Position numbers and translations under genes: made by a program. The notes beneath the pieces were generated by a model. That model saw nothing but the letters and a program-made list of their open reading frames with translations, did not search any database and was not told where the DNA came from. 64,000 bases of DNA from Escherichia coli (lineage in GTDB: Bacteria > Pseudomonadota > Gammaproteobacteria > Enterobacterales > Enterobacteriaceae), in NCBI RefSeq assembly GCF_050920415.1, contig NZ_CP169309.1. One strand, 5' to 3'. Below are positions 7,958 through 61,673 of the stretch, piece by piece. Position 1 is the first letter of the stretch. Each line of letters starts with the position of its first letter.

Positions 7958-8062
7958 CGCCAGATAAGACACAACAGCGTCGCATCAGGCATCTCGCACA
8001 ACCGCCGGATGCGGCGTGAATGCCTTATCCGGCGGCCCACAAGTCGGCATCAGGCATTGATG
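7958..8062. repeat. REP/BIME cluster
   Basis: CGCATCAGGCAT...GCCGGATGCGGCGTGAATGCCTTATCCGGCGG...GGCATCAGGCATTGATGCC palindromic units between ytfR and ytfQ. Confidence 0.85.
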
Positions 8063-17092: not shown

Positions 17093-17257
17093 ATCAGTCG
17101 TCTGAATTTTAACCCTCTGGCGACTTTACAGTACCTTACGCTATACTAGCCACTGAAAATGCCGGTTCACTTTCTTCGAATCGGCTTTCAATGTGTATTT
17201 CACACAAATTAATCAACTTCCCCTTCCGAGGATCTGGCCTGAAAGGTCGGATAAGAT

Positions 17258-18663: not shown

Positions 18664-18870
18664 TTAAGCCATCTCTGTTTGCAGACGCATAACCTGACGG
18701 TTAACTTCGGACATCACTGACAAATGCAGCTTATCCTTCACTTTTGGGATAAGAATCTTACCCTTATCAAATTCAAAAGCGCCAACGTCCTTGATGTATA
18801 ACCGTCCACGGAACAGGATCTTTACGTACTTCGCCACCTGCAGTGGGTTGTACCGTTGGAAAATTTTCAT
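18664..18870 (-). CDS. ytfK: Small DUF1107 protein YtfK
   Basis: Start set to ATG 18868-18870 ([20 protein letters not shown]..., 68 aa) rather than the ORF-track extension. Confidence 0.88.
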
Positions 18871-19850: not shown

Positions 19851-20774
19851 TCAATAACCCTTATTCGCGTTTAACGGTTTTACCTCTTTTTTAAACGCTT
19901 CAATGGTAGATTTATATTTCTTGTGAATCTTGTCTTCGGTATAATTACCGTTTGCGGCCAGATTTGCACTTACAATCGCTTCCACTTGCTCGGTTATTTC
20001 CACTTGTTGGTAACCTGCATTAACCAGAAAATTATAAATAAGAGAGTAATCTTCACCCTGCAAAAAAATATAAGAGCCAGTTCGAAGTTCCTCATCCCCT
20101 CCATAGATTTTAAGAGCAAAGCCCAAAGATTCTATGACCATGGCATAATTTCCATTATTTATTTTCTCGCAAAAATACCATCCTTCACATTCTTTAATGC
20201 TACCTCCTGGCCCTTCAAGTTCAAATTTACCCCGTTTTAATTTGCTTACTACATTCTCCAAATAAGCAGAATCGTAAGATAAGTTACCCGCCGCCTTCCG
20301 AAAATAACCGTTAATCCTTTCAGGTATGTCAGACTGTTTTTTCTGCAAAATATCATAGGCATACAATCTTCTATTTTGTGCTAGTGGAAATTCACGGTTT
20401 TTAAAGTCTATAAATGAGTTATACTCATTTATTGTTATAGGGATTTCTTCGTATTCAAATCCAGTGCCTCGCAATGTCATTGTATATTCGGCACCGTTAT
20501 CTTTAAGGCGGAAGCTGATAAGAAAATTATCCATGGAGTGAACGGTTTCATCTTTTAATGAAAGCACCTGATAACTATTTTTATCGATCTGTGTTGCTCT
20601 AAGAAAGAACTCCCTTAAAATTAACAGACTATCATAATTCGAAATCCAATCCCTTTTCTTAAATGCATGCTGAATATTATTAAAGAAATTATTTGAATGT
20701 ATTTTTGTATGCGATGACTTTACAAATAACTCCACTGCACCAAAAAAATTATTGTGTCTAATCTTGGGTAACAT
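19851..20774 (-). CDS. ytfI: Uncharacterized protein YtfI (AT-rich gene)
   Basis: 307 aa ORF, markedly AT-rich, flanked by AT-rich intergenic DNA; no recognisable domain. Confidence 0.8.
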   Translation of the reverse strand: MLPKIRHNNFFGAVELFVKSSHTKIHSNNFFNNIQHAFKKRDWISNYDSLLILREFFLRATQIDKNSYQVLSLKDETVHSMDNFLISFRLKDNGAEYTMTLRGTGFEYEEIPITINEYNSFIDFKNREFPLAQNRRLYAYDILQKKQSDIPERINGYFRKAAGNLSYDSAYLENVVSKLKRGKFELEGPGGSIKECEGWYFCEKINNGNYAMVIESLGFALKIYGGDEELRTGSYIFLQGEDYSLIYNFLVNAGYQQVEITEQVEAIVSANLAANGNYTEDKIHKKYKSTIEAFKKEVKPLNANKGY

Positions 20775-20986
20775 ATGACAACCTTATTATATTTGGTTAT
20801 TCTATGTCGCCATTAAATATCTTGTTAAAGAAGTAAACTATCAAAAAATGCTCATTATTAAGATATAACTCATTAGCGTTAGAATATTTACACTTTAAAT
20901 ACAATCCCTTTATATCTATAACTTTTTAGGTTGGAAACAAATCAGGATGGCAGAATCAGGAAATACACTGTTTCTGCCATATATAT

Positions 20987-21727
20987 TTAATAAATAGAGA
21001 CTCTGAACCCAGGATTCAGGAACGACTCGCGCGGGGTATAATCCAGCGGTTTACCCTGCCAGTCGTGAACGTGCGCTCCGGCCGCTGCCGCAACTGCGTG
21101 ACCGGCGGCGGTGTCCCAAATATTGGTTGGCCCGAAACGCGGGTAAAGCTGCGCCTGCCCTTCCGCCACCAGGCAGAATTTCAGCGAAGAGCCGATAGAC
21201 GTGGTTTGATGTTCGCCAAGCTGTTGCAGATACTCTTTCAGCTCCGCATCCGCATGGGAACGGCTGATCACCACCAGCGGCGGGCGCGCATCGCGGACCT
21301 GAATCTGCTTGCGTACACCGCACTCTTCTTTCCAGGCTTTGCCGTCTGCCGCGCTGTACATTACGTTCATTACCGGCGCATACACCACACCTAAAATCGG
21401 TTTGCCGTGGTCGATGAGCGCAATATTAACGGTGAATTCACCATTACGTTTAATAAACTCTTTAGTACCATCCAGCGGGTCTACCAGCCAGTAACGCTGC
21501 CAGTGTTGACGGACTTCCCAACCGGGAGGATCTTCTTCAGAAAGGACCGGAATATCCGGTGTCAGCGTACGTAAACCGTCCATGATAACGGTGTGTGCGG
21601 CAATATCCGCTGCCGTTACCGGAGAATTGTCCGCTTTGCTGACGACGTCCATCGGTTTCGTCCCGTCGTAGACCTGCATAATGGCATCGCCTGCATTCCG
21701 TGCAAGCTGGCATACTTGATCTAACAT
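20987..21727 (-). CDS. cysQ: 3'(2'),5'-bisphosphate nucleotidase
   Basis: 246 aa [23 protein letters not shown]...; inositol-monophosphatase-family motifs (DPLDGT, WDTAAG). Confidence 0.95.
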
Positions 21728-21916
21728 TTCTCCACCTCGTCTCTGTGAGCGGTGTTAACTTATTGTTTTACTTATACCCTATCGTTAAAGAATGCGCCAA
21801 CTGTGATAGTGTCATCATTTTCAAAGCGTTAAATTGTGGCATTCTTCACTGTTCTAAAAGTAAGAGGTTTATTCTCCCTTTTCTTTCGAATTCCCGATGA
21901 TAAAAGGATGTCCCTG

Positions 21917-23860
21917 ATGATTAAGTTTAGCGCAACGCTCCTGGCCACGCTGATTGCCGCGAGTGTGAATGCAGCGACGGTCGATCTGCGTATCATGGAA
22001 ACCACTGATTTGCATAGCAACATGATGGATTTCGATTATTACAAAGACACCGCCACGGAAAAATTCGGACTGGTACGTACGGCAAGCCTGATTAACGATG
22101 CCCGCAATGAAGTGAAAAACAGCGTACTGGTCGATAATGGCGATTTGATTCAGGGGAGTCCGCTGGCCGATTACATGTCGGCGAAAGGATTAAAAGCCGG
22201 AGATATTCATCCGGTCTATAAGGCATTGAATACGCTGGACTATACCGTCGGCACACTCGGTAACCACGAGTTTAACTACGGTCTGGATTACCTGAAAAAT
22301 GCACTGGCAGGAGCGAAATTCCCTTATGTAAACGCCAACGTCATTGACGCTAAAACCAAACAGCCCATGTTTACACCGTATTTGATTAAAGACACCGAAG
22401 TGGTCGATAAAGACGGAAAAAAACAGACGCTGAAGATTGGCTATATTGGCGTCGTACCGCCGCAGATTATGGGATGGGATAAAGCTAATTTATCTGGCAA
22501 AGTCACCGTTAACGATATAACGGAAACTGTGCGCAAGTACGTACCTGAAATGCGCGAGAAAGGTGCCGATCTCGTTGTCGTTTTGGCGCATTCTGGTCTC
22601 TCTGCCGATCCGTATAAAGTGATGGCAGAAAACTCAGTTTATTACCTCAGTGAAATTCCGGGCGTTGATGCCATTATGTTTGGCCATGCTCACGCCGTCT
22701 TCCCGAGTAAAGATTTTGCGAATATCAAAGGGGCTGATATCGCCAAAGGCACGCTGAACGGCGTTCCGGCGGTAATGCCGGGCATGTGGGGCGATCATCT
22801 CGGCGTGGTCGATCTGCAACTCAATAATGACAGCGGAAAATGGCAGGTGACGCAGGCGAAAGCGGAAGCACGGCCAATTTACGATATCGCCAATAAAAAA
22901 TCCCTCGCGGCGGAAGACAGCAAGCTGGTAGAAACACTTAAAGCCGATCACAACGCCACACGCCAGTTTGTCAGCAAACCAATCGGTAAATCTGCCGACA
23001 ATATGTATAGCTATTTGGCGCTGGTGCAGGACGATCCGACCGTGCAGGTGGTGAATAATGCACAAAAAGCGTATGTCGAACATTACATTCAGGGCGATCC
23101 GGATCTGGCAAAACTGCCGGTGCTTTCAGCTGCCGCACCGTTTAAAGTCGGTGGTCGCAAAAATGATCCGGCAAGCTATGTGGAGGTGGAAAAAGGTCAG
23201 CTGACTTTCCGTAATGCTGCCGATCTTTATCTCTATCCCAATACGCTGATTGTGGTGAAAGCCAGCGGTAAAGAGGTGAAAGAGTGGCTGGAGTGCTCCG
23301 CCGGACAGTTTAACCAGATTGATCCTAACAGCACGAAACCGCAGTCACTCATCAACTGGGATAGTTTCCGCACCTATAACTTTGACGTCATTGATGGTGT
23401 GAATTATCAGATTGATGTTACTCAGCCCGCCCGCTATGACGGCGAGTGCCAGGTGGTTAATGCCAATGCGGAAAGAATTAAGAACCTGACCTTTAACGGC
23501 AAGCCGATTGATCCGAACGCGATGTTCCTCGTTGCCACCAATAACTATCGCGCTTACGGCGGCAAATTTGCAGGTACGGGCGATAGCCATATCGCTTTTG
23601 CTTCACCGGATGAGAACCGCTCGGTGCTGGCAGCGTGGATTGCAGATGAGTCGAAGCGTGCGGGAGAAATTCACCCGGCGGCAGATAACAACTGGCGTTT
23701 AGCACCGATTCCCGGCGATAAGAAACTGGATATCCGTTTCGAAACCTCTCCGTCAGATAAAGCCGCAGAGTTTATTAAAGAGAAAGGGCAGTATCCGATG
23801 AATAAAGTCGCGACCGATGATATCGGCTTTGCGATTTATCAGGTGGATTTGAGTAAGTAA
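21917..23860 (+). CDS. cpdB: 2',3'-cyclic-nucleotide 2'-phosphodiesterase / 3'-nucleotidase
   Basis: ORF track starts at 21836; ATG 21917 ([19 protein letters not shown]..., 647 aa) with signal peptide and metallophosphoesterase GNHEF motif. Confidence 0.95.
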
Positions 23861-23887
23861 AACACTTTTCCCGTCTATAGATATGAA

Positions 23888-23982
23888 CCGCATCCGGCAT
23901 TTATTGGCGGATGCGGTGCTGCTGCATCTTATCCGCCCTACAGGTCATGAACCGTAGGCCGAATAAGCGCAGCGCATCCGGC
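23888..23982. repeat. REP/BIME cluster
   Basis: CGCATCCGGCA...GCGGATGCGGTG...CCGTAGGCCGAATAAGCGCAGCGCATCCGGC units between cpdB and the ytfH stop. Confidence 0.8.
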
Positions 23983-23984
23983 TG

Positions 23985-24365
23985 TTATGCCGCACGTTCA
24001 TCCCGCACTGCCAACACCTCAGGCAAATTCAACTCAATCCAGTCCGCCAGTGCAGCAACCTTTTCGCTCACCTGCTCGCCCAGCGGCGTGAGGCTGTATT
24101 CCACATGCGGCGGCACCACCGGATAAGAGATACGGTTAAGAAACCCATCCTGCTCTAACGCCTGTAACGACTGCGCAAGCATCTTTTCACTCACCCCACC
24201 CATCTTGCGGCGCAGGTCGCTAAAACGGTGCGTACCTTCGCGAAGCGCGACCAGAATCAATACCCCCCAACGGCTGGTGACGTGTTTCAACACCTCGCGC
24301 GACGGGCACTGTTCGGCGAAGAGGTTACCCTCTTTCAGTTGTTGCGACAGGCTAGCCTGGCTCAT
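23985..24365 (-). CDS. ytfH: HxlR-type winged-helix transcriptional regulator
   Basis: 126 aa ORF MSQASLSQQLKEGNLFAEQCPSREVLKHVTSRWG...; divergent from ytfG. Confidence 0.9.
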   Translation of the reverse strand: MSQASLSQQLKEGNLFAEQCPSREVLKHVTSRWGVLILVALREGTHRFSDLRRKMGGVSEKMLAQSLQALEQDGFLNRISYPVVPPHVEYSLTPLGEQVSEKVAALADWIELNLPEVLAVRDERAA

Positions 24366-24387
24366 TCATACTTACCTTTTTGTACGT

Positions 24388-24404
24388 ACTTACTAAAAGT
24401 AAGT
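24388..24404. promoter_or_regulatory. Perfect palindrome ACTTAC-TAAAA-GTAAGT in the ytfH/ytfG divergent region (candidate operator)
   Basis: 6 bp perfect inverted arms with a 5 bp A/T spacer, centred between the two divergent start codons. Confidence 0.3.
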
Positions 24405-24452
24405 TTAGGTGGTAGCGTATTTAAACACAAGACAAACCGATGGAGGCTTCCC

Positions 24453-25313
24453 ATGATCGCAATTACCGGCGCAACCGGCCAACTTGGTCACCATGTTATT
24501 AACTCCTTACTGAAAACCGTTCCTGCCAGCCAAATAGTGGCTATCGCGCGTAACCCGGCAAAAGCACACGCACTGACAGCACAAGGCATTACTGTACGTC
24601 AGGCTGACTACGGCGATGAAGCCGCACTGACATCTGCGCTTCAGGGTGTGGAAAAACTGCTGCTGATCTCTTCCAGCGAAGTGGGGCAACGTGCCCTGCA
24701 GCATCGAAATGTTATTAATGCCGCTAAGGCGGCGGGCGTGAAATTTATCGCTTATACCAGCCTGCTACATGCTGATACCTCCCCGCTCGGCCTCGCCGAT
24801 GAGCACATCGAGACGGAGAAAATGCTGGCTGTTTCTGGCATCGCTTACACCTTGCTGCGCAACGGCTGGTACACCGAAAACTATCTCGCCAGCGCCCCGG
24901 CAGCACTGGAGCACGGCGTATTTATCGGTGCCGCGGGCGATGGCAAAATTGCCTCAGCTACGCGAGCTGATTATGCGGTAGCTGCGGCGCGCGTAATTAG
25001 CGAAGCAGGTCACGAAGGCAAGGTTTATGAACTGGCAGGTGATAGCGCCTGGACACTGACACAGTTAGCGGCGGAACTCACCAAACAGAGCGGCAAACAG
25101 GTTACCTATCAAAACCTGAGCGAAGCTGATTTCGCCGCGGCGCTGAAAAGCGTCGGTCTGCCTGACGGGCTGGCGGATATGCTGGCAGATTCTGACGTTG
25201 GCGCATCGAAAGGCGGCCTGTTTGATGACAGCAAAACGCTGAGCAAATTGATTGGCCGCCCAACGACAACATTAGCCGAGAGCGTAAGCCATCTTTTTAA
25301 TGTTAATAACTAG
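24453..25313 (+). CDS. ytfG: NAD(P)H:quinone oxidoreductase (NmrA-like)
   Basis: ORF track starts at 24228; GGAGG Shine-Dalgarno then ATG 24453 gives MIAITGATGQLGHHVINSL... (286 aa) with a Rossmann GATGQLG motif. Confidence 0.93.
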   Translation: MIAITGATGQLGHHVINSLLKTVPASQIVAIARNPAKAHALTAQGITVRQADYGDEAALTSALQGVEKLLLISSSEVGQRALQHRNVINAAKAAGVKFIAYTSLLHADTSPLGLADEHIETEKMLAVSGIAYTLLRNGWYTENYLASAPAALEHGVFIGAAGDGKIASATRADYAVAAARVISEAGHEGKVYELAGDSAWTLTQLAAELTKQSGKQVTYQNLSEADFAAALKSVGLPDGLADMLADSDVGASKGGLFDDSKTLSKLIGRPTTTLAESVSHLFNVNN

Positions 25314-25411
25314 TTAATTAAAGTGGCATCCTCCCGTATCCTCTCTGATAATGACGGGATGCGGGGAGCAATCATGTCTGCTTCCTGAACTTTCTTCTGA
25401 CAGACCAATGG

Positions 25412-26386
25412 ATGCCAGTAATGATTAGCGGCGTGCTGTACGCCCTGTTAGCAGGGTTGATGTGGGGGCTTATATTTGTCGGGCCGTTGATCGTGCCGGA
25501 ATACCCGGCGATGTTGCAGTCGATGGGGCGTTATCTGGCGTTAGGGTTAATTGCGCTACCCATTGCCTGGCTGGGGCGCGTGCGTCTGCGTCAGTTAGCG
25601 CGTCGCGACTGGCTTACGGCCTTGATGCTCACTATGATGGGCAACCTTATCTATTACTTCTGTCTTGCCAGTGCCATTCAACGTACTGGCGCGCCTGTTT
25701 CCACGATGATTATCGGCACCCTGCCGGTGGTTATTCCTGTCTTCGCCAATCTGCTTTATAGCCAGCGTGACGGTAAACTCGCGTGGGGGAAACTCGCCCC
25801 GGCGCTGGTTTGTATTGGCATCGGCCTGGCATGTGTAAATATTGCTGAGTTAGACCACGGACTCCCCGATTTTGACTGGGTACGTTATGCCTCAGGCATC
25901 GTACTGGCGCTAGTCTCCGTGGTCTGCTGGGCGTGGTATGCCTTGCGCAACGCCCGTTGGCTGCGGGAAAACCCAGACAAACATCCGATGATGTGGGCGA
26001 CGGCGCAGGCGCTGGTCACGCTGCCGGTTTCGCTCATCGGTTATCTTGTCGCCTGTTACTGGCTGAATACGCAAACGCCGGACTTCTCCCTACCTTTTGG
26101 CCCCCGTCCGCTGGTGTTTATTAGTCTGATGATTGCGATAGCCGTGCTTTGCTCATGGGTTGGCGCACTTTGCTGGAACGTCGCCAGCCAGCGATTACCA
26201 ACGGTGATTCTCGGGCCGCTGATTGTCTTCGAAACGCTGGCAGGTTTGCTGTACACCTTTTTGTTACGCCAGCAAATGCCGCCGCTGATGACGCTGAGCG
26301 GTATCGCGCTGTTAGTGGTTGGCGTGGTCATTGCGGTCAGAGCAAAACCGGAAAAACCCTTAATTGAACCTGTCTCTGAAAGTTGA
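25412..26386 (+). CDS. ytfF: Inner-membrane EamA/DMT-family transporter
   Basis: 324 aa polytopic membrane ORF; the start may be the ATG 9 nt downstream (MISGVLYALLAG...). Confidence 0.88.
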   Translation: MPVMISGVLYALLAGLMWGLIFVGPLIVPEYPAMLQSMGRYLALGLIALPIAWLGRVRLRQLARRDWLTALMLTMMGNLIYYFCLASAIQRTGAPVSTMIIGTLPVVIPVFANLLYSQRDGKLAWGKLAPALVCIGIGLACVNIAELDHGLPDFDWVRYASGIVLALVSVVCWAWYALRNARWLRENPDKHPMMWATAQALVTLPVSLIGYLVACYWLNTQTPDFSLPFGPRPLVFISLMIAIAVLCSWVGALCWNVASQRLPTVILGPLIVFETLAGLLYTFLLRQQMPPLMTLSGIALLVVGVVIAVRAKPEKPLIEPVSES

Positions 26387-26444
26387 CACGCTTGCAGTGA
26401 GTTAAATAAGCCTCTGCTACGTAAGGGTTATAGCATTCACCTTA

Positions 26445-26467
26445 AAGATGCATTTAAAATACATCTT
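26445..26467. promoter_or_regulatory. NsrR operator in the ytfE promoter
   Basis: AAGATGCATTTAAAATACATCTT: 11-1-11 inverted repeat with one mismatch, matching the NsrR box, about 27 nt upstream of the ytfE ATG. Confidence 0.85.
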
Positions 26468-26493
26468 ATCTTATTAAGAATGAGGTATCAGCT

Positions 26494-27156
26494 ATGGCTT
26501 ATCGCGACCAACCTTTAGGTGAACTGGCGCTCTCTATTCCTCGCGCTTCGGCTCTGTTTCGTAAATATGATATGGATTACTGCTGTGGCGGTAAGCAAAC
26601 GCTGGCGCGCGCGGCGGCACGTAAAGAACTGGATGTTGAGGTCATTGAAGCCGAACTGGCAAAGCTTGCTGAACAACCGATTGAGAAAGACTGGCGTAGC
26701 GCCCCACTGGCAGAAATCATCGACCATATCATCGTGCGCTACCACGATCGTCACCGTGAACAACTGCCGGAACTGATTCTGCAAGCGACTAAAGTCGAAC
26801 GCGTTCACGCCGACAAACCGAGCGTGCCAAAAGGGCTGACAAAATACCTGACCATGCTGCATGAAGAGCTTTCCAGCCACATGATGAAAGAAGAGCAGAT
26901 CCTCTTCCCGATGCTCAAACAAGGCATGGGTAGCCAGGCGATGGGGCCAATTAGCGTAATGGAAAGCGAGCACGATGAAGCGGGTGAACTGCTGGAAGTA
27001 ATCAAACACACTACCAATAACGTCACACCGCCGCCGGAAGCCTGCACCACCTGGAAAGCGATGTATAACGGTATTAATGAACTGATTGATGACCTGATGG
27101 AGCACATCAGTCTGGAAAACAATGTGCTGTTCCCGCGCGCGCTGGCGGGTGAGTGA
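26494..27156 (+). CDS. ytfE: Iron-sulfur cluster repair di-iron protein (RIC)
   Basis: 220 aa [36 protein letters not shown]... with hemerythrin-like His/Glu residues; NsrR box upstream. Confidence 0.95.
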
Positions 27157-27188
27157 TCTAAAAGCTGGATGGCATTGCGCCATCCAGC
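27155..27188. terminator. Hairpin terminator between convergent ytfE and cycA
   Basis: GCTGGATGGC-ATTGC-GCCATCCAGC perfect 10 bp stem with TTTTAG on the minus-strand side. Confidence 0.7.
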
Positions 27189-27200
27189 ATGATAAAGCCG

Positions 27201-28613
27201 TTACTTCCGCAGTTCAGCAGTCCGCTTCTTACCAATAAACAACCAGCCCAACCCCAGCGCGATAAACCACAGCGGGGTAACCAGCAGCGCCTGGCGAGTG
27301 TCATCTTCCAGTGTCAGCAGCACGATCACGAACACAAAGAACGCCATACATACCCAGCACATCAGCTTACCGAGCGGCATCTTGTAGATTGATTTCTCAT
27401 GCAGGTGCGGACGCTGTTTGCGATACACCAGGTATGAGCAAAGGATAATCGTCCAGACGAACATAAACAGAATCGCGGAAACAGTCGTGATCATCGTGAA
27501 CGCGCCAATTACACTTGGATTCACATACAACATCACCACGCCGCCGAGCAGACAGATACAAGAGAAGGTCAGCCCTTTCGCTGGTACGGCGCGCTTAGAA
27601 AGTTTAGCGAACGCTTTCGGCGCAACACCTTCCTGGGCCAGACCAAACAGCATACGGCTGGTAGAGAAGACGCCGCTGTTAGCGGAAGACGCCGCAGAGG
27701 TCAGCACCACAAAGTTGATTACGCTGGCAGCCGCAGGCAAACCCACCAATACAAAAAGTTCAACGAACGGGCTTTTCTCCGGGACTACCGAACTCCACGG
27801 CGTCACGGACATAATCACAATCAGCGCGAAGACGTAGAACATAATGATACGGATCGGAATGGAGTTAATCGCACGTGGCAGTGATTTCTCCGGATCTTTC
27901 GTTTCCGCAGCGGTTGTACCGACCAGCTCAATCCCCACGAAAGCGAAAACCGCTATCTGGAATCCGGCAAAGAAGCCACTTAAACCTTTCGGGAACCAGC
28001 CGCCGTCATTCCACAAATGCGCAAACGACGCTTCCACACCGGTCGGTGACTGGAAGTGCATCATGACCATGACCAGGCCGACGACAATCAGTGACACGAT
28101 GGCGACAATTTTGATCATCGCAAACCAGAACTCCATCTCACCGAACATTTTCACGGTAGCGAGGTTGAGCGTCAGCAGCAGCACTATCACCGCCAGCGAG
28201 GCAACCCAGTCGGAGAGATCGGGGAACCAGAACTGAGCATAGGCAGTGATGGCCACCACGTCCGCCATACCGGTAACCACCCAGCAGAACCAGTAGGTCC
28301 AGCCAGTGAAATATCCCGCCCATGGCCCCAGTAAATCGGAAGCGAAGTCACTAAAAGATTTGTATTCCAGATTCGAAAGCAGCAATTCCCCCATTGCCCG
28401 CATCACGAAAAAGAGCATAAAACCGATGATCATATAAACGAAGATGATCGACGGTCCGGCAAGGCTGATTGTTTTACCGGACCCCATAAACAACCCCGTA
28501 CCAATGGCCCCACCAATGGCAATAAGCTGAATATGTCGGTTTGTGAGATTGCGCCGTAGCGACTGTTCAGCCGGAGCCTGATCATCGGCAACGACTTTTA
28601 CCTGATCTACCAT
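27201..28613 (-). CDS. cycA: D-serine/D-alanine/glycine:H+ symporter (APC family)
   Basis: 470 aa ORF MVDQVKVVADDQAPAEQSLRRNLTNRHIQLIAIGGAIGTGLF...; 12-TM amino-acid permease. Confidence 0.95.
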   Translation of the reverse strand: MVDQVKVVADDQAPAEQSLRRNLTNRHIQLIAIGGAIGTGLFMGSGKTISLAGPSIIFVYMIIGFMLFFVMRAMGELLLSNLEYKSFSDFASDLLGPWAGYFTGWTYWFCWVVTGMADVVAITAYAQFWFPDLSDWVASLAVIVLLLTLNLATVKMFGEMEFWFAMIKIVAIVSLIVVGLVMVMMHFQSPTGVEASFAHLWNDGGWFPKGLSGFFAGFQIAVFAFVGIELVGTTAAETKDPEKSLPRAINSIPIRIIMFYVFALIVIMSVTPWSSVVPEKSPFVELFVLVGLPAAASVINFVVLTSAASSANSGVFSTSRMLFGLAQEGVAPKAFAKLSKRAVPAKGLTFSCICLLGGVVMLYVNPSVIGAFTMITTVSAILFMFVWTIILCSYLVYRKQRPHLHEKSIYKMPLGKLMCWVCMAFFVFVIVLLTLEDDTRQALLVTPLWFIALGLGWLFIGKKRTAELRK

Positions 28614-28921
28614 GTTTTTTTCTTCCTGTACCTGTCTGTGTTGTTCAGGCTCTGCGGCCTTTAGTCAGTCTATGATACGACGAATCTGTATCGGGACTCA
28701 TCGATATTAGGTAACAATACGCGGGATGAATACTAAGATTTAGATCTAATGTTAATTTTATGTTTAAAGTGAGTGTCATATCACGGTGATAACGCGAAAC
28801 AGCTCACAAAAATACACGCTTACGTGGTCTTTGCAACACAAAATAGCGCCATTTGGCAAACTGAAGGGTTTATTGCTGAATGCCTGCTCCCCTCTGGCTC
28901 GAGGGGAACAGAATGCGCTGC

Positions 28922-29542
28922 TTAGAGGATTTCCAGCAGTTCGACTTCAAACACCAGGGTGCTGAACGGAGGGATGGACGCGCCTGCGCCACGCTCGCCA
29001 TAGGCCAGTTCCTGCGGGATAGTCAGTTCCCATTTAGAACCTACCGGCATCAGAGTCAGTGCTTCAATCCAGCCAGGGATCACGCCGTTAACCGGGAATT
29101 CAGCTGGCTCGCCACGGGCAACAGAGCTGTCAAACACAGTGCCGTCGATCAGTTTACCGGTGTAATGAACACGAACGCGGTCAGTGCGTGCCGGAATTGC
29201 GCCTTCCCCCTGATTGATCACGCGGAATTGCAGGCCAGATTCGGTGCTATTCACACCTTCTTTTTTGGCGTTTTCTTCCAGGTATTTCACACCTTCAGCA
29301 GCCATCGCCTGGAAACGCTGACGACGAACGGCATCGGCGCGTTCGTGGATTTCACGCAGCGCGCGGTGCACCACATCAACCGGAACAGCCGGATGTTTGC
29401 CTTCCAGCGCATCGGCAATGCCTGCAACCAGGGCTTCTGGCAGCAGCCCTTCCAGGCCTGATTCACTCAGTTGTTGCCCTACCTGCAAACCAATGCCGTA
29501 GCTTGCTTGCGCTTCGATGGTGTCAAAAGTTGGGGTGGTCAT
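28922..29542 (-). CDS. fklB: FKBP-type peptidyl-prolyl cis-trans isomerase
   Basis: ORF track begins at 29701; ATG 29540-29542 gives [18 protein letters not shown]... (206 aa) with a C-terminal FKBP domain. Confidence 0.93.
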
Positions 29543-29759
29543 CGTATTTCCTTTCTTAGGGTATAAAGTAGCGGGCAGCATATCAGCCACACTTCTTTGG
29601 GTAAAACTTTGTCGCGGGAATGATGACAAATCCCGGGGAAAAAGAAACAATAGCAATATCCCGTATGAATATAATAAAGGCGGGTTTACCACGGACATCA
29701 TAGCGTTAGCTTATTCATAGGCTATGATTGAGGAACAAGACGCGGAGCAGGAGGAAACC

Positions 29760-30398
29760 ATGCCCGGGCGCTTTGAACTAAAACCAACCCTGGAGAAAGT
29801 CTGGCACGCGCCGGACAATTTTCGCTTCATGGACCCGCTACCGCCGATGCATCGTCGGGGGATCATTATTGCCGCTATTGTATTGGTGGTCGGATTTCTA
29901 CTCCCGTCGGATGATACGCCAAACGCGCCGGTGGTGACGCGTGAAGCACAGTTAGATATTCAGTCGCAATCACAACCGCCGACAGAAGAACAGCTGCGGG
30001 CGCAATTAGTCACACCACAAAATGATCCTGATCAGGTGGCTCCGGTCGCTCCAGAACCGATACAGGAAGGCCAACCGGAAGAGCAGCCGCAAACCTCGCA
30101 AGTGCAACCTTTCCAGCCAGATAGCGGAATTGACAATCAATGGCGCTCTTATCGTGTCGAACCCGGTAAAACAATGGCGCAGCTGTTCCGCGACCACGGA
30201 CTGCCCGCTACCGATGTCTATGCAATGGCGCAGGTAGAAGGCGCGGATAAGCCACTGAGTAATTTGCAAAATGGGCAGATGGTGAAAATCCGCCAGAACG
30301 CCAGCGGCGTGGTGACGGGCTTAACCATTGATACGGGAAATAATCAACAGGTTCTGTTTACCCGCCAGCCGGATGGCAGTTTTATTCGCGCGCGGTAG
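29760..30398 (+). CDS. ytfB: OapA-domain cell-division/envelope protein YtfB
   Basis: GAGGAA Shine-Dalgarno then ATG 29760 ([19 protein letters not shown]..., 212 aa); TM anchor and Pro/Gln-rich linker. Confidence 0.9.
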
Positions 30399-31029
30399 AT
30401 GAAGGGTCAACCAGAAGCCAGCTAAGGATCGTCTCTTTGATGACCTTACGCCTGGCTTCCAGTGCCTGCGGTGAAACCATACTGATGTGATAAACCAGGC
30501 CAAGCGTATGTTGGTTGATCAAATAATATCCTCCAAGAGCAGCAATATTAATATTCACCTGCAACGGGTCGATATCTGGCTTAAAAATATTGCGCCGTTT
30601 GCCTTCAGCTAATAATGACTCCATTAACTGTAAGTGTGCGTGGTTAATTTCTAAAAGGCGCTGTGATTTTGCATAATGCACCCCTTTACTCTGGTTTTCA
30701 CTATGCACAATTTTTAAAAACCAGGGGTTAGCAATGTAATAATCCCAGGTGAAATCGATAATTTTCTCAATGGCTTTTTGTGGCGGAAGACCTGAGAAAT
30801 CAAGGGATTTTTCTTTTTGCCGAATATCATTCCAGGTATATTCCAGCACTTCGATAAATAAATTTTCTTTATTACCAAAGTGATGATAAACCGTCTGTTT
30901 ACTGCACTCCGCGGCCTTGACGATATTATCGACTCTGGCCCCTTCGTAACCATATTCGGCAAATTCATTAACCGCACATAACAACAGCTTTTCCTTCAGG
31001 CTTTGTACGTTGCTGGTATCAAGATACAT
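30382..31029 (-). CDS. TetR/AcrR-family transcriptional regulator (islet regulator)
   Basis: ORF track start 31089 is GTG; ATG 31027-31029 gives [58 protein letters not shown] (TetR N-terminal HTH), 215 aa. Divergent from the downstream operon; 3' end overlaps the ytfB 3' end by 17 bp. Confidence 0.85.
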
Positions 31030-31151
31030 TCCGCTTCCCCACGTCTTCTTCGTGATGACTATCTTAACCCGATTTGTTAGAAGCTCCACTAAAATGGCTA
31101 AAAACTCGCAATTTCATCGGGTTATCAAATGCTCTGTGATCATTATCGCAT

Positions 31152-31173
31152 ATCAACCAACTAGATGGTTGAT
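31152..31173. promoter_or_regulatory. Candidate TetR operator (22 bp palindrome) in the islet divergent promoter
   Basis: ATCAACCA-ACTAGA-TGGTTGAT: perfect 8 bp inverted arms with a 6 bp spacer, between the regulator start (31029) and the operon start (31241). Confidence 0.4.
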
Positions 31174-31240
31174 CTTTCTTGCCACACATTGCAAGCTAAT
31201 CGTCACTTAAGGAAATAATATTCAAAAAGAGGGTTATTGT

Positions 31241-32032
31241 ATGAAGTCAACACGTCCTGTTGCTGTCATCACTGGAGCCGCACGTGGTATTGGAAAGGGC
31301 TGTGCACTGGAACTTGCGCGTGGCGGATTTAATCTGCTGATTAATGATCGTCCGGATGCCGACAGCGTAGAAAAATTACATGCCACACAACAAGAATGTC
31401 TGGCGGAAGGCGTGGAAGTGATTTGCTTCCCTGCTGATGTTGGCGATCTCTCCCTTCATGAAGAGATGCTCGACGCGGCGCAAAACCAGTGGGGACGTCT
31501 GGACTGTCTACTCAACAACGCAGGCATTTCAGTGAAAAAACGCGGTGACCTCCTCGACCTCGAACCAGACAGCTTCGACCAAAACATTGCCATTAACACC
31601 CGTGCGCCGTTCTTCCTTGCTCAGGCATTCAGTAAGCGATTACTGGCACAGCCGAAACCGGAAGCAGAACTGCCGCACCGCTCGATTATTTTTGTCAGTT
31701 CCATAAACGCCATCATGCTGGCGATGAATCGCGGCGAATATACCATTGCAAAAACTGCCGTCTCCGCCGCAGCTCGTCTGTTTGCCGCTCGCCTTTGCAA
31801 TGAACAAATTGGCGTTTATGAAGTGCGCCCTGGCCTAATCAAAACCGATATGACCATTCCGGCAACGGCTTATTACGACGAACTGATTGCTAAGGGGTTA
31901 GTGCCGTGGGGACGTTGGGGTTATCCGGCTGATATTGCCTCAACGGTCCGCGCGATGGCGGAAGGCAAACTGATTTACACCTGTGGTCAGGCGGTCGCCA
32001 TCGACGGCGGCTTAAGTATGCCGCGCTTCTGA
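31241..32032 (+). CDS. Short-chain dehydrogenase/reductase (SDR) family oxidoreductase
   Basis: 263 aa ORF; TGAARGIG cofactor-binding motif, NNAG, and catalytic Y-x3-K (EYTIAK); AGAGGG Shine-Dalgarno. Confidence 0.85.
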   Translation: MKSTRPVAVITGAARGIGKGCALELARGGFNLLINDRPDADSVEKLHATQQECLAEGVEVICFPADVGDLSLHEEMLDAAQNQWGRLDCLLNNAGISVKKRGDLLDLEPDSFDQNIAINTRAPFFLAQAFSKRLLAQPKPEAELPHRSIIFVSSINAIMLAMNRGEYTIAKTAVSAAARLFAARLCNEQIGVYEVRPGLIKTDMTIPATAYYDELIAKGLVPWGRWGYPADIASTVRAMAEGKLIYTCGQAVAIDGGLSMPRF

Positions 32033-32041
32033 GGCTGAATC

Positions 32042-32884
32042 ATGAGAGATCTGTTACAACGCCCGGATTTATTCAGTATCAATACTGCGACACTGGGCTA
32101 TAAAACGCCGCTACCTGCCATTATTGATGCCTGCGCCGCACGCGGTATTGGCGCGATTGCCCCCTGGCGCAGGGAGTTGCAGGGTGAAGATCTCCAGCAA
32201 ATCGCCCGCCAGCTTGCTGCCAGTAACATGAGCGTTTCCGGTTTGTGTCGTAGCACCTATTACACCGCGCCGACGCTGACGGAACGCAAACTGGCGATTG
32301 ATGATAACCGCCGGGCGCTGGACGACGCCGCTGTACTGAACGCCGCCTGTTATATGCAGGTGGTTGGCGGTCTGCCAATGGGAACAAAAGATCTGTACGA
32401 AGCACGGGAACAGGTGAAACAAGGGATTCGCCAGTTGCTGCCACATTCGAAAGAGGTCGGCGTGCCAATTGCACTGGAGCCACTGCACCCGATGACTGCT
32501 GCCGATCGTTCTTGTCTGTGCACATTACGTCAGGCGCTGGACTGGTGTGATGAACTCGATCCCGATGGCGAATTTGGCCTCGGCGTGGCGGTAGATGTCT
32601 ACCATGTCTGGTGGGACCCGGATCTCGCCAGTCAGATCCTGCGTGCCGGAAAACGCATCCTCGCGTTTCATGTTTCCGACTGGCTGGTGCCAACCACCGA
32701 TTTAGTCAATGATCGGGGAATGCCGGGAGATGGCGTCATTAATATTCCCTCTATTCGTCGGCTGGTTGAAAACGCCGGATTTAATGGCGCTATTGAACTG
32801 GAAATATTCTCGCCGTACTGGTGGCAGAAAGATATTAACAGCACGCTGGATATTAGCGTCGATCGCATCGCGCATTATTGCTAA
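32042..32884 (+). CDS. Sugar-phosphate isomerase/epimerase-like TIM-barrel enzyme (xylose-isomerase-like fold)
   Basis: 280 aa ORF with the LEP / FHVSD signature pattern typical of this fold; 9 nt downstream of the SDR stop. Confidence 0.7.
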   Translation: MRDLLQRPDLFSINTATLGYKTPLPAIIDACAARGIGAIAPWRRELQGEDLQQIARQLAASNMSVSGLCRSTYYTAPTLTERKLAIDDNRRALDDAAVLNAACYMQVVGGLPMGTKDLYEAREQVKQGIRQLLPHSKEVGVPIALEPLHPMTAADRSCLCTLRQALDWCDELDPDGEFGLGVAVDVYHVWWDPDLASQILRAGKRILAFHVSDWLVPTTDLVNDRGMPGDGVINIPSIRRLVENAGFNGAIELEIFSPYWWQKDINSTLDISVDRIAHYC

Positions 32885-32893
32885 GGAATGATC

Positions 32894-33670
32894 ATGAGTG
32901 ACCAACCCGTTCTGTTCAGCAGAGCGGCGGCTTCCTGCCGCCTGACATTGAACCGTGAAGATAAATGTCATGCTATTAATGAAGAAATGATCGAATCTCT
33001 CGACCATTATTTAAATGAAATTGAAAACGACACCACATTACGATTAGTCGAATTAACGGCAACCGGCGATAAATTCTTTTGTGCGGGCGGCGATATTAAA
33101 TCGTGGTCAGCCTATTCGCCATTAGATATGGGCAGAAAATGGATTAAACGCGGCAATGACGTTTTTAATCGCCTGCGCAATTTACCTCAATTAACGGTTG
33201 CGAATCTCAACGGTCATACTATCGGCGGTGGTATTGAACTTGCCTTGTGCTGCGATATTCGTATTGCCCGCCCCAGTGCGAAATTCTCTAATCCGGAAGT
33301 AATGCTCGGCATGGTGCCTGGCTGGATGGGCATTGAACGCGTGCTTAATCAGGTCGGTCCGGTGGTCGGTCGCCAGATGCTGATGCTGGGTAAACGCCTG
33401 ACGGCGCAGGAAGCTCAGGCGGCGAATTTAATTGATGAAGTGGTAGAAAAAGAACAGGTGGAAAGCTGGATGGCGAATCAGTTAGCGCAGCTGGAAAAAT
33501 GCGGTCCGGTGGCGCTCGCACATATCAAGCAACTGATTCTGGCTCTAGAAAATAAACATGCTGATTACCCGCACCAGTTACTGGCTGGATTAATGTCCGC
33601 CACTCAGGATTGCCAGCAGGCGACGCGCGCATTTGCCGAAAAAAGTAGCGTGAGCTTCCAAAATCAATAA
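32894..33670 (+). CDS. Enoyl-CoA hydratase/isomerase (crotonase) family protein
   Basis: Crotonase hallmarks FFCAGGDIKSW and GHTIGGGIELALCCDIRIA; ATG 32894 is preferred over 32888 on Shine-Dalgarno spacing. Confidence 0.85.
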   Translation: MSDQPVLFSRAAASCRLTLNREDKCHAINEEMIESLDHYLNEIENDTTLRLVELTATGDKFFCAGGDIKSWSAYSPLDMGRKWIKRGNDVFNRLRNLPQLTVANLNGHTIGGGIELALCCDIRIARPSAKFSNPEVMLGMVPGWMGIERVLNQVGPVVGRQMLMLGKRLTAQEAQAANLIDEVVEKEQVESWMANQLAQLEKCGPVALAHIKQLILALENKHADYPHQLLAGLMSATQDCQQATRAFAEKSSVSFQNQ

Positions 33671-33679
33671 GGAAATTGT

Positions 33680-35221
33680 ATGCGTAAGATAACAACCGCC
33701 GAGACACTGGCGGCGCAAATTCAGGACGGCGCAACCATTGCCATTAGCGGTAATGGCGGCGGCATGGTGGAAGCGGACCATATTCTGGCTGCTATTGAAG
33801 CGCGTTTCCTGCAAACCGGACACCCGCGCGATCTGACATTAATCCACTCGCTGGGCATTGGCGATCGCGACTGCAAAGGCACTAACCGCTTCGCTCATGC
33901 AGATATGCTCAAACGCATCATTGCCGGACATTTTACCTGGTCGCCCAAGATGCAGGATCTGGTGAAAAACAATGCTATTGAAGCCTACTGCTTCCCTGGT
34001 GGCGTAATTCAGGCACTGCTGCGGGAGATCGGTGCCGGACGTCCAGGGCTTTTTACCCACGTTGGACTGGGATCGTTTGTTGATCCGCGCAACGGCGGCG
34101 GTAAGTCGAACGCCAGCACCACTGAGGATCTGGTAGAACTGATTGAAATCGACGGTGAAACCAAACTTCGTTATCGCCCTTTCAAAGTGGATTACGCGAT
34201 TTTGCGTGGCACTTATGCTGATCCGCGTGGCAACGTCAGCCTCGAAGAAGAGGCGATTGATATGGATAGCTATTCCATGGCGCTGGCAGCACACAACAGC
34301 GGCGGCAAAGTGTTCGTACAGGTGCGCGATGTGCTGGAAGCTGGTGCCATTGAACCACGCCGGGTCAAATTACCGGGCATTCTGGTTGATGGCATCGTTG
34401 AACACCGCGAACAACCACAAACCTATCTTGGCGGTTACGATCTGACCATTAGCGGTCAGCATCGCCGTCTAAGTTCTAACGACGCAATTGAACTGGTTAG
34501 TCATCCGGTGCGCCGCCTGATTGCCCGTCGGGCAGCACGCGAACTGGTAGCTGGCGCTTCAACCAACTTTGGCTTTGGCATTCCCGGCGGCATTCCTGGG
34601 GTTGCACTGCGCGAAGGCGTGCCTTATCAAAGTTTATGGCTGAGCGTCGAGCAAGGCGTGCATAACGGTATGATGCTGGATGATGCTCTGTTCGGCTGCG
34701 CCCGTAACGCCGATGCCATTATTCCATCACTCGATCAATTCGAATTCTACAGTGGCGGAGGGATCGATATCACCTTCCTCGGCATGGGAGAGATGGATCA
34801 GCATGGTAACGTCAACGTCTCCCATCTCAATGGCAATCTCATTGGCCCCGGCGGATTTCTCGAAATTGCGCAAAACGCCCGTAAAGTGGTGTTCTGTGGC
34901 ACGTTCGACGCCAAAGGTAGCAAGATTGATGTAACACCAGATGGCTTGCATATCGCCCAGTCAGGTCAAATCCCTAAACTGGTTACCCAGGTGGAAAAAA
35001 TCACTTTTAGCGCCGCCTACGCACAGCAAAGCGGTCAGGAAGTGTTGTATATCACTGAACGTGCAGTATTCCAGTTAACGGCAGAAGGCGTTGAATTAAT
35101 TGAAATCGCGCCGGGTGTGGAGATTGAACGCGACATTCTGCCGCATATGGCTTTCCGTCCAATTATCAATCAGCCACGCCTGATGGAAAGTAGCCTGTTT
35201 ACGCCGATGGAGGATGCATGA
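33680..35221 (+). CDS. Fused family-I CoA-transferase (acyl-CoA:acetate/3-ketoacid CoA-transferase-like)
   Basis: 513 aa ORF about the size of fused alpha/beta family-I CoA-transferases, with glycine-rich loops (ISGNGGG, SGGGIDITFLGMGE); AAGGA Shine-Dalgarno. Confidence 0.7.
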   Translation: MRKITTAETLAAQIQDGATIAISGNGGGMVEADHILAAIEARFLQTGHPRDLTLIHSLGIGDRDCKGTNRFAHADMLKRIIAGHFTWSPKMQDLVKNNAIEAYCFPGGVIQALLREIGAGRPGLFTHVGLGSFVDPRNGGGKSNASTTEDLVELIEIDGETKLRYRPFKVDYAILRGTYADPRGNVSLEEEAIDMDSYSMALAAHNSGGKVFVQVRDVLEAGAIEPRRVKLPGILVDGIVEHREQPQTYLGGYDLTISGQHRRLSSNDAIELVSHPVRRLIARRAARELVAGASTNFGFGIPGGIPGVALREGVPYQSLWLSVEQGVHNGMMLDDALFGCARNADAIIPSLDQFEFYSGGGIDITFLGMGEMDQHGNVNVSHLNGNLIGPGGFLEIAQNARKVVFCGTFDAKGSKIDVTPDGLHIAQSGQIPKLVTQVEKITFSAAYAQQSGQEVLYITERAVFQLTAEGVELIEIAPGVEIERDILPHMAFRPIINQPRLMESSLFTPMEDA

Positions 35222-37299
35222 GTCAGCTTGATGACACCCTCCTTGATGCGCTGACGCACGTCACTTTCCCGAAGGGTTTTGTGTCAGCAGAGCCAGCGTC
35301 AATTGTCACGGTTGAAGATGTCGATTACCCGATCTGGCAAGTTGATGCGCTAGTCGTTGGTAGCGGCGCGGCAGGGCTGCGCGCAGCGGTTGAACTTAAG
35401 CGCCGCCAGCAAAATGTGCTGATCGCCACCGCCGGGTTATATATGGGGACATCGGCATGTTCTGGTTCCGATAAACAGACGCTGTTTACCGCCGCTACCG
35501 CGGGCAACGGCGATAACTTCGCTAAACTGGCGGAAGCACTGGCGAGCGGTGGGGCGATGGATCACGACACCGCTTATGTCGAAGCGGTAGGTTCTCTGCA
35601 CACTCTTGGCGGGTTGCAATATCTTGGTCTGGAATTACCGGAAGATCGCTATGGCGCAATTCTTCGTTATCAAACCGACCATGACGAAGCCGGGCGAGCA
35701 ACCTCGTGTGGGCCGCGTACTTCTCGCCTAATGGTGAAAGTATTGCTGGAGGAAGTGCAGCGTCTTGCCATACCACTACTGACCAGTGCAACGGTGATTA
35801 AGCTCCTGCATCAGCACGGAGAGAATGGCGAAGATCGCGTTGCGGGGGCTATTCTCGCAACCGGTTCCCGCGCCTATAACCCTTGGGGGCTGGCTATTGT
35901 GACGGCGCCCAATGTGGTACTGGCAACGGGCGGACCGGGCGAGCTTTATCGCGACAGTGTTTATCCACATAAATGCTTCGGCTCGCTGGGGCTGGCGCTG
36001 GAAGAAGGTCTGACGCTAACCAATCTGACCGAAAGCCAGTTTGGTATAGGCACGCCGCGCAGCACGTTTCCGTGGAATTTGTCCGGCACCTATGTACAGG
36101 TGATCCCATATATCTATTCCGTGGATGCCGGGGGCAACGAGTATAACTTCCTCGCAGATTACTATCGCACCACCCAGGAGCTGGCTTCAAACATCTTCCG
36201 TAAAGGCTATCAGTGGCCGTTTCACGCCACACGAGTGATGGATTTTGGCTCCAGCTTGTTAGATATGGCAGTAGCGCAAGAGCAGCAATCAGGGCGTCAG
36301 GTATTTATGGATTTCAATCGCAATCCTGAACCTGTGCCGGGTGACCTGCCGTTCTCATTAGATCGACTGGACGACGACGTTCGCGCGTATCTGGAAAATA
36401 ACGACGCTCTGGCACCATCGCCCATCGAACGACTGCAACGAATGAATCCGCTGTCTATCTCGCTGTATAAGATGCACGGTTACGATCTCACCACGCAGCC
36501 ATTGCAGTTTGCCATGAATAATCAGCATATGAATGGCGGCATTGAAGTGGATATCTGGGGGCAAACCTCCCTGTCCGGCTGTTTCGCCGTGGGGGAAGTT
36601 GCTGGCACACACGGCGTCACTCGCCCTGGTGGTGCGGCATTGAATGCCGGGCAGGTTTTTGCTGTTCGTCTGGCACGTTTTATTGGTTGCACGCAAAAGC
36701 GGTCCGTTGAGGATGATGTCGCGCAGCTAGTAGCCTCACCTCTGCATACAATCAGAGAAGTTATCGCTCAGGCACTGGCAAACGAGAACGGAATGACGCT
36801 GGCAACGGTAAAAGAAAAAATCCAGGCGCGAATGTCTGATTACGCGGGATTTATTTGCCATGCTGATAAAGTTCGTCACGCCGCCCGTGACGCCATGCTG
36901 TTAAATGAATTTGCGCAGCAACATGGTCTAACTATCAACCACGCCGGTGAAATTGCCGAGCTATTTATGTGGCGGCATATGGCATTAACATCCGCTGCGG
37001 TGTTAAGCCAGCTATCACATTATATTGATGCTGGCGGTGGTAGTCGTGGAGCGCGGATGATTATTGATCCACAAGGAGAATATCTTCCACAAACTCGTCG
37101 CGGCGCAATCGAAGATTGGCGTTTTCGCTCTGAACAAGCTGAAGATAAAAATCACAGACTAACTCTCTCCTTTTCACAAGGTTTATTTATTAATGAAATT
37201 AAGTTCTTGAGAAACTTACCGCATATTAAAGGTATTTACTTTGAGAAGAATTGGCCTGATTTTCTTAACGGAACAATTTATCAGACACGGCATGAATAA
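35218..37299 (+). CDS. FAD-binding flavoprotein of the fumarate reductase / succinate dehydrogenase / L-aspartate oxidase superfamily
   Basis: 693 aa ORF; N-terminal dinucleotide-binding motif DALVVGSGAAGLRAAVEL; ATG overlaps the CoA-transferase stop (ATGA); the last ~300 nt are AT-rich. Confidence 0.75.
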   Translation: MSQLDDTLLDALTHVTFPKGFVSAEPASIVTVEDVDYPIWQVDALVVGSGAAGLRAAVELKRRQQNVLIATAGLYMGTSACSGSDKQTLFTAATAGNGDNFAKLAEALASGGAMDHDTAYVEAVGSLHTLGGLQYLGLELPEDRYGAILRYQTDHDEAGRATSCGPRTSRLMVKVLLEEVQRLAIPLLTSATVIKLLHQHGENGEDRVAGAILATGSRAYNPWGLAIVTAPNVVLATGGPGELYRDSVYPHKCFGSLGLALEEGLTLTNLTESQFGIGTPRSTFPWNLSGTYVQVIPYIYSVDAGGNEYNFLADYYRTTQELASNIFRKGYQWPFHATRVMDFGSSLLDMAVAQEQQSGRQVFMDFNRNPEPVPGDLPFSLDRLDDDVRAYLENNDALAPSPIERLQRMNPLSISLYKMHGYDLTTQPLQFAMNNQHMNGGIEVDIWGQTSLSGCFAVGEVAGTHGVTRPGGAALNAGQVFAVRLARFIGCTQKRSVEDDVAQLVASPLHTIREVIAQALANENGMTLATVKEKIQARMSDYAGFICHADKVRHAARDAMLLNEFAQQHGLTINHAGEIAELFMWRHMALTSAAVLSQLSHYIDAGGGSRGARMIIDPQGEYLPQTRRGAIEDWRFRSEQAEDKNHRLTLSFSQGLFINEIKFLRNLPHIKGIYFEKNWPDFLNGTIYQTRHE

Positions 37300-37319
37300 T
37301 ATTGCAAAGGTTAATCACT

Positions 37320-37796
37320 ATGCGAAATATAATCAGATCTATTAATTCATTGCTTTCCACATTGAACATTACCATTTTGGCAATTATTGTGATGTGCGTT
37401 ACATGGCAAGTAGTAGCACGATTTATCTTTAAAAGCCCCAGCATTTTTACAGATGAACTTAGTCGTTTACTATTTATTTGTCTTGGACTTTTTGGTGGTG
37501 CTTATACTGCCGGACAAAACCGACATCTGGCCATTGATCTTCTGCCAATGATGCTAAAAGGAAAATCCCGACGTTATTTATTCTTATGTATTCAGGCCAT
37601 TGTTATTCTTTTTGCCTCTATCATTATGGTTTATGGTGGCGGGTTATTAACACTGGACACATTTGATTCAGGGCAAACTTCTCCGGCTTTAGGCTGGCAG
37701 ATGGGATATATTTACATGAGCATTCCAATAAGTGGCATCCTTATTATTATATACACCATAGATACAGTTTTAACCGAACTTAAACAACCACTCTAA
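37320..37796 (+). CDS. TRAP transporter small permease (DctQ-like)
   Basis: ORF track start 37302 is TTG; ATG 37320 with AAGG Shine-Dalgarno gives a ~158 aa four-TM protein; strongly AT-rich. Confidence 0.8.
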   Translation: MRNIIRSINSLLSTLNITILAIIVMCVTWQVVARFIFKSPSIFTDELSRLLFICLGLFGGAYTAGQNRHLAIDLLPMMLKGKSRRYLFLCIQAIVILFASIIMVYGGGLLTLDTFDSGQTSPALGWQMGYIYMSIPISGILIIIYTIDTVLTELKQPL

Positions 37797-37818
37797 AATA
37801 AGTAGGGATGGAGAAAAC

Positions 37819-39120: not shown

Positions 39121-39172
39121 TATGCATTAACTGGCGGCACCTGCCGCCATATTTATTAGAAAAGGAACATCT

Positions 39173-40144: not shown

Positions 40145-40201
40145 TTACCTTCATGGGGCTGCTTATTGTGGCCCTTATCGATATCAGCAAGTGCTCGCTA
40201 T

Positions 40202-41299: not shown

Positions 41300-41713
<414 letters not shown>

Positions 41714-42022
41714 TTATTCAGCCTCCTGTCTGGGTCAGCCGAATCCCGGGGAGGCAAGGAACGTGTTAAAGGTCGGCTGAAAAATGACGCGTTATAGTAC
41801 TGACATACCCCGTTAAACTCAAGGCCAGCCGACAAATAAATCTCATCTTTCACCAAATCGTACTAACACGCTGATTTGAAGTTCATCACACTTCATCATG
41901 GTGTTTTTTTGAACAACTGCATCAGAAATGGTCACCATCAACTTCTTTATCATTGATTAAAATTAAATCAGAAGATCACCACAAGAGGAGAGCACACAAA
42001 GTCAGCCGTCGAGGAGGTATCT

Positions 42023-61247: not shown

Positions 61248-61673
61248 TCACTCCACCAGCAATAATTTATAAAGCGGTTGATTCTCTTCAACCAAATCGG
61301 CAAGCGTGTAGTTATCCAGTTCCGTAAGAAAACTTTGCACGGCCTTAGAAAGTGCCTGTTTCAACCGACAGGCAGGTGTAATGTGGCAAAACTCACTGCT
61401 GCAATTCACCAGCGATAAGGGCTCCAGCTCGCGCACCACATCACCAATACGTATCGCACTCGCCGGTTTACCCAGACGAATGCCGCCATTTTTTCCACGA
61501 ACAGCAGTCACGTAGCCGGCACGACTAAGTTGATTGATTATTTTGACCATATGATTACGGGAGACGCCGTAGACGTCAGTCACTTCAGAAATACTGGTCA
61601 TCCGCCCTTCTGGCAATGACGCCATGTAGATCAGCGCACGTAATCCGTAATCAGTGAAACTCGTTAACTGCAC
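61248..61673 (-). CDS. nsrR: Nitric-oxide-sensing Rrf2-family repressor NsrR
   Basis: 141 aa ORF (GTG start) [31 protein letters not shown]... with a C-x6-C-x5-C cluster ligand motif. Confidence 0.93.

Follow-up and report, generated by a model that had tools for sequence, protein, structure and literature searches.

Our results show that the ytfE gene of this Escherichia coli strain is preceded by an inverted repeat that is almost certainly the operator at which the trans-acting [4Fe-4S] protein NsrR represses the ytfE promoter, with NO lifting the repression. All positions below refer to the window, that is, the whole stretch of 64,000 nucleotides that was analysed. The operator, the regulated gene and the repressor gene lie in the window as follows.

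26445..26467, no strand assigned: NsrR operator, an 11-1-11 inverted repeat AAGATGCATTT-A-AAATACATCTT (repeat, matrix score, K-12 identity)
26494..27156, + strand: ytfE, the regulated gene, intact, 220 aa (NF008221, Pfam, K-12 identity)
61248..61673, - strand: nsrR, intact, 141 aa, GTG start (NF008240, K-12 identity, RefSeq annotation in the matching genome)

The sequence AAGATGCATTTAAAATACATCTT occupies positions 26445-26467. A repeat finder placed its arms at 26445-26455 and 26457-26467, each of 11 nt and separated by a 1-nt spacer. The arms are complementary at 10 of 11 positions (91%); the one exception is C at 26451, which faces A at 26461. This was the sole short inverted repeat that the finder reported within 26300-26600. 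Its 3' end is 26 nt from the ytfE ATG (26494), which confirms the near-perfect 11-1-11 repeat upstream of the ytfE start that an earlier note on this DNA had described. The half-sites, AAGATGCATTT inverted around a 1-bp spacer, satisfy the consensus gATGyAT-N5-ATrCATc of Rodionov et al. (2005). When up to three mismatches were allowed, the 64-kb window held no second match to the 23-mer, and 100 shuffles that preserved the dinucleotides yielded no match at all.

The motif score of the operator is exceptional. We used a reverse-complement-symmetrised weight matrix derived from 25 distinct other sites of the published 27-site CFT073 table, from which the ytfE site had been left out. With this leave-one-out matrix the operator scored 30.0 bits, while the 25 training sites reached only 12.3-26.2 bits in-sample, all of them below the operator. 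The runner-up position in the 64-kb window had 12.2 bits. In 200 random 64-kb sequences, the per-sequence maxima averaged 13.8 bits and the highest was 21.0 bits. The NsrR motif scan of the window, which the earlier note had named as a check, hence puts the site far above background. As judged from the sequence, the window has a single full NsrR site, 26445-26467, and its quality is exceptional. Isolated NsrR half-site-like 11-mers with at most one mismatch occur three times in the window, namely the two ytfE arms and one further 11-mer. This count is at chance level, as 34 of 100 shuffles contained three or more matches. The further 11-mer, AAGCTGCATTT at 18722-18732 on the - strand, is a lone half-site-like sequence with one mismatch, and its frequency fits chance.

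The identification as an NsrR operator is further supported by comparison with known sites. The ytfE operator of K-12 (Bodenmiller and Spiro, 2006; Partridge et al., 2009, both as cited in PMC5320621) has the same 23 bp as the window, and K-12 MG1655 is identical to the window from 26440 through to the ytfE ATG. An exact match to K-12 over these 23 bp is not significant alone, because the whole 107-bp ytfF-ytfE intergenic region has only four substitutions (at 26393, 26435, 26438 and 26439). In strain CFT073, the ytfE site AAGATGCATTTAAAATGCATCTT has the same gene, position and 11-1-11 architecture, and shares 22 of 23 bases with the window. The difference is at operator position 17, where CFT073 has G, giving a perfect palindrome, while the window has A and hence one arm mismatch. 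Of the 27 11-1-11 NsrR sites predicted in CFT073, the ytfE site had the best PatSer score; it lies under an NsrR ChIP-seq peak whose summit precedes the start codon by 50 bp, and nitrate raised the expression of ytfE 69.6-fold (Mehta et al., 2015, PMC5320621). The operators of hmp, hcp, ygbA and yeaR in E. coli share the 11-1-11 consensus and the repressor with the window site but are more degenerate, at 20-26 bits versus 30 bits for the ytfE site under the same matrix. None of these four genes lies within the window.

The operator has already been described in E. coli, in line with the statement of the earlier note that ytfE and NsrR form a known regulatory pair. Rodionov et al. (2005, PMC1274295), who derived the consensus mentioned above, found the ytfE (dnrN) site conserved across enterobacteria, and cited S. 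Spiro (personal communication) for the involvement of the inverted repeat in the repression of ytfE by NsrR. In EHEC, the ytfE promoter has served as an NsrR-dependent NO reporter (PMC7336997). According to literature cited in PMC9052748, NsrR no longer represses once its cluster is nitrosylated, and the targets that are induced consistently are ytfE, hmp and hcp. By analogy with published results on nearly identical sequences of other E. coli strains, the present site may be expected to be occupied in vivo, ytfE to be induced by NO or nitrate, and the Fe-S cluster of NsrR to react as described there.

Both partners of the pair, ytfE and nsrR, are intact at the level of sequence. YtfE matches the NCBIfam equivalog NF008221 with 416.5 bits (cutoff 254) and contains the Pfam domains ScdA_N (PF04405) and Hemerythrin (PF01814). 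It is identical to the K-12 protein at 218 of 220 residues, with I141L and D203E as the only differences, and retains C30, C31, H84, H105, H129, E133, H160, H204 and E208. We take the His and Glu residues among these to be the di-iron ligands, as in the YtfE structure. YtfE has been described as a di-iron RIC protein, and also as an NO-generating nitrite reductase.

The nsrR gene was found at 61248-61673, as the earlier note had placed it. Its product matches NF008240 with 292.8 bits (cutoff 182) over residues 1-141, and the Pfam family Rrf2 with 129.5 bits. All 141 residues are identical to those of K-12 NsrR, and the gene differs from its K-12 counterpart by two nucleotides in 426, both synonymous. 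Loss of the Fe-S ligand cysteines had been proposed as a further check; none is lost, since Cys91, Cys96 and Cys102 are all present, as is Asp8, and all four residues can be aligned with Streptomyces NsrR structures. The three cysteines align with the three Cys to Ala positions of the apo variant of Streptomyces NsrR (5N08; the holo form is 5N07), and the next-best structure matches to the NsrR of the window are IscR structures. Hence, the earlier note's claim of a validation that both partners are intact stands for sequence integrity, and for nothing beyond it. Searching for autoregulation, we found no NsrR site 5' of nsrR among the top 15 positions of the window, which apart from the operator all score at most 12.2 bits.

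The same operator core is found in many other bacteria. We scanned one genome per bacterial species with a 19-nt core, GATGYATTTNAAATRCATC, and obtained at least 120 matching stretches in these contigs. Adjacent genes were counted at the 118 loci with a callable open reading frame beside the site among the matches listed; the classes overlap at divergent genes. The core lies beside ytfE at at least 34 of these 118 loci, beside a flavohaemoglobin gene (Globin, FAD and NAD domains) at at least 32, beside nsrR at at least 23, beside a truncated globin gene at at least 17 and beside a tehB homologue at at least 4. At most loci, the neighbour of the core is ytfE, hmp, nsrR or a truncated globin gene, and this association is the signature to be expected of the NsrR regulon.

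Conservation of the 19-nt core itself is circular, because the loci were chosen by that core. Five positions of the operator were left free by the pattern, namely the outer AA, the outer TT and the central A, and these are invariant in the 33 ytfE-linked enterobacterial loci listed. Most of these 33 loci also have 28 nt from the end of the core to the ATG, while the DNA further upstream diverges freely among them. Independent evidence comes only from what lay outside the selection pattern, namely the positions left free, the distance to the ATG and the identity of the adjacent genes.

In Legionella, Methylobacter, Nitrosomonas, Endozoicomonas, Virgibacillus and others, the core lies directly 5' of nsrR, often in a divergent arrangement with a gene for a truncated globin or a flavohaemoglobin (loci L003, L022, L024, L030, L037, L047, L049, L055, L064, L067 and L070 are among them). 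This implies autoregulation in those species. In the scan of the window, no such site preceded nsrR.

Within E. coli, the ytfE promoter region is present in 5,415 of 5,426 complete genomes. Three matches were on plasmid-labelled E. coli records, and some genomes have two copies. Among 5,413 complete genomes with the region, an exact 41-mer around the operator was found with the A allele in 3,433 and with the G allele, the perfect palindrome, in 888. Operator position 17 (26461) is thus A, as in K-12, in at least 63% and G in at least 16% of the complete E. coli genomes. Across the 33 enterobacterial species, A and G are about equally common at this position, a pattern compatible with neutrality as well as with a polymorphism that is maintained. 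It is conceivable, though we consider it rather doubtful, that the A/G variation tunes the affinity of NsrR and thereby sets lineage-specific basal ytfE levels and NO thresholds. If true, such tuning might matter, because YtfE produces NO from nitrite and so feeds back on NsrR (PMC9052748).

In the mechanism that we propose, a dimer of [4Fe-4S] NsrR, the product of 61248-61673, would act in trans on the two 11-bp half-sites. The operator would overlap or abut the core promoter, where the bound dimer would bar RNA polymerase from initiating at ytfE. NO would then nitrosylate the NsrR cluster held by Cys91, Cys96 and Cys102 (and Asp8, by homology), and the nitrosylated protein would lose DNA binding, leaving ytfE derepressed. 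Repression by occlusion is the best-supported mechanism. We infer the exact overlap with the -10 and -35 elements, because full-text literature searches retrieved no mapped ytfE transcription start (a paper on in vitro start sites by ROSE does not include ytfE) and a simple consensus scan called no canonical sigma-70 promoter in 26300-26560. Candidate -10 elements were sought by sigma-70 hexamer scoring over 34 aligned ytfE upstream regions. The features of the promoter region that bear on this geometry are listed here.

26422..26434, + strand: AAGGGTTATAGC-like block just 5' of the operator, conserved across 33 enterobacterial species
26455..26460, + strand: candidate -10 hexamer TAAAAT inside the operator, the best positionally fixed -10-like hexamer in the 34 aligned ytfE upstream regions
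26467..26472, + strand: alternative candidate -10 hexamer TATCTT abutting the 3' edge of the operator, the second-best -10-like position in the 34 sequences
26482..26485, + strand: ytfE Shine-Dalgarno sequence GAGG, 8 nt 5' of the ATG, read from the sequence and kept in the 34-sequence alignment

The conservation of TAAAAT is no independent evidence for a -10 element, because the hexamer belongs to the search pattern. The hexamer at 26467-26472, which is TATCTT here and TATATT in most other enterics, is conserved outside that pattern. The block at 26422-26434, AAGGGTTATAGC in the window, has the consensus AAAGGGkTATAkC and precedes the operator by about 10 nt; the last base of its TATAGC-like hexamer is C instead of T. 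This block may be a weak -10 element or an activator site. Possibly, its conserved TATAGC at 26429-26434 is a third -10 candidate, which would place the operator at about +4 to +26. With any of the three -10 candidates, the operator would sit where a bound dimer blocks either the binding or the escape of the polymerase.

Citrobacter, Enterobacter, Kluyvera and others have a CRP-like TGTGA-N6-TCACA sequence centred 30 nt 5' of the TATAGC-like hexamer, a class-II-like spacing. Escherichia has no CRP-like site upstream of ytfE; instead, ytfF abuts the region.

An alternative explanation might be that another regulator, either a different Rrf2 protein such as IscR or some other factor, is the main protein to bind the palindrome, and that NsrR controls ytfE only indirectly. 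The Rrf2-family fold is shared, with IscR structures as the next-best matches to NsrR, and the conserved block 10 nt upstream of the operator suggests that other factors may act at the promoter. Yet, the operator outscores all 25 training NsrR sites under a matrix from which ytfE was excluded, an NsrR ChIP-seq peak covers the CFT073 site that differs by one base, and in several phyla this core is found upstream of hmp, nsrR and globin genes, as is typical of the NsrR regulon. In view of the ChIP-seq peak and of the link to the whole regulon, there is no need to assume that another Rrf2 protein binds, and we regard this explanation as very improbable. The operator also appears to lack the CC/GG signature that we take to mark IscR type-2 sites.

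Even less credible is that the repeat has no operator function, being either a chance AT-rich palindrome or simply part of the core promoter with TAAAAT as its -10. The operator is indeed AT-rich and holds a good -10-like hexamer, and isolated half-sites occur in the window at chance frequency (three, against three or more in 34 of 100 shuffles). In contrast, the full 23-mer had no counterpart with up to three mismatches in any of 100 shuffles, and its 30 bits compare with a random maximum of 21. Moreover, the outer AA and TT and the central A do not vary among 33 species, in which the flanks do diverge, and the core is linked to NO-response genes. The matrix score and the conservation effectively refute a chance palindrome. 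Equally little credence is due to the idea that the repeat works in the RNA, forming a hairpin in the 5' leader of ytfE that affects stability or translation. A start 5' of 26445, for instance from the conserved TATAGC block, would put the repeat in the transcript, and the minimum-free-energy fold does contain a short stem from both arms. However, the energy of this fold is -8.8 kcal/mol, compared with -7.72 on average for shuffled sequences (z = -0.49), and an equally good or better fold was obtained for 55 of the 200 shuffles. The 1-nt spacer is too short for a loop. Furthermore, the natural variants C/T at position 7 and A/G at position 17 are not compensatory, since the four haplotypes include both mismatched combinations. 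We rejected the RNA hairpin on the basis of this z-score and of the non-compensatory variants. The preferred explanation is that the palindrome is a DNA site for NsrR at the ytfE promoter.

The earlier note had also pointed out that nsrR lies about 35 kb from ytfE in the same window. The distance, about 34.8 kb, is right, but the linkage has no functional meaning. NsrR acts in trans on sites chromosome-wide, and in K-12 the gap between the two genes is about 25 kb. The gene order ytfF-ytfE-cycA is common to K-12 and the window, in an orientation that is the reverse of the K-12 chromosome. Most of the increase to about 35 kb here is due to a 9.4-kb accessory island; an extra gene between yjfK and yjfJ adds to it. 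The accessory segment at 30785-40199 is absent from K-12 and replaces yjfZ/ytfA between ytfB and rplI. Its annotation comprises a TetR/AcrR regulator, a 3-ketoacyl-ACP reductase, a sugar-phosphate isomerase/epimerase, an enoyl-CoA hydratase, an acyl-CoA:acetate/3-ketoacid CoA transferase, an FAD-dependent oxidoreductase and a three-gene TRAP transporter; the segment resembles an accessory island with catabolic functions. The gene between yjfK and yjfJ (55541-56611, - strand), for which the annotation gives a potassium channel family protein, has no K-12 counterpart. The window also contains several RNA features that score above the Rfam gathering score.

1727-1804, - strand: naRNA4 (REP-derived), one copy
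7958-8034, - strand: naRNA4 (REP-derived), another copy
17139-17196, + strand: STnc450
21794-21916, - strand: ES239 sRNA
41693-41777, - strand: RpsF leader

The DNA of the window is 94-97% identical to that of K-12. Over 10 kb, it is 100% identical to NZ_CP169399.1 (strain MFDS1022581, Korea), in which RefSeq annotates ytfE and nsrR. When 10 kb were compared with 5,426 complete E. coli genomes, this genome was the only one with at least 99% identity, while 341 genomes had 95-99% and 5,078 had 90-95% identity. By these comparisons, for example over 20000-30000, the strain, or this region of it, belongs to a rare divergent lineage, and yet nsrR differs from K-12 by only two synonymous bases.

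The NsrR operator of ytfE is an already known feature, a textbook site, and its presence here adds little. Its use is that of a positive control for motif-based annotation, not a discovery. An unchanged operator and only two synonymous changes in nsrR, within otherwise divergent DNA, would fit strong purifying selection on the regulatory pair. The NsrR-ytfE circuit of the NO-stress response thus seems to be intact in a strain that, in the region of the window, is unusually divergent from most E. coli.
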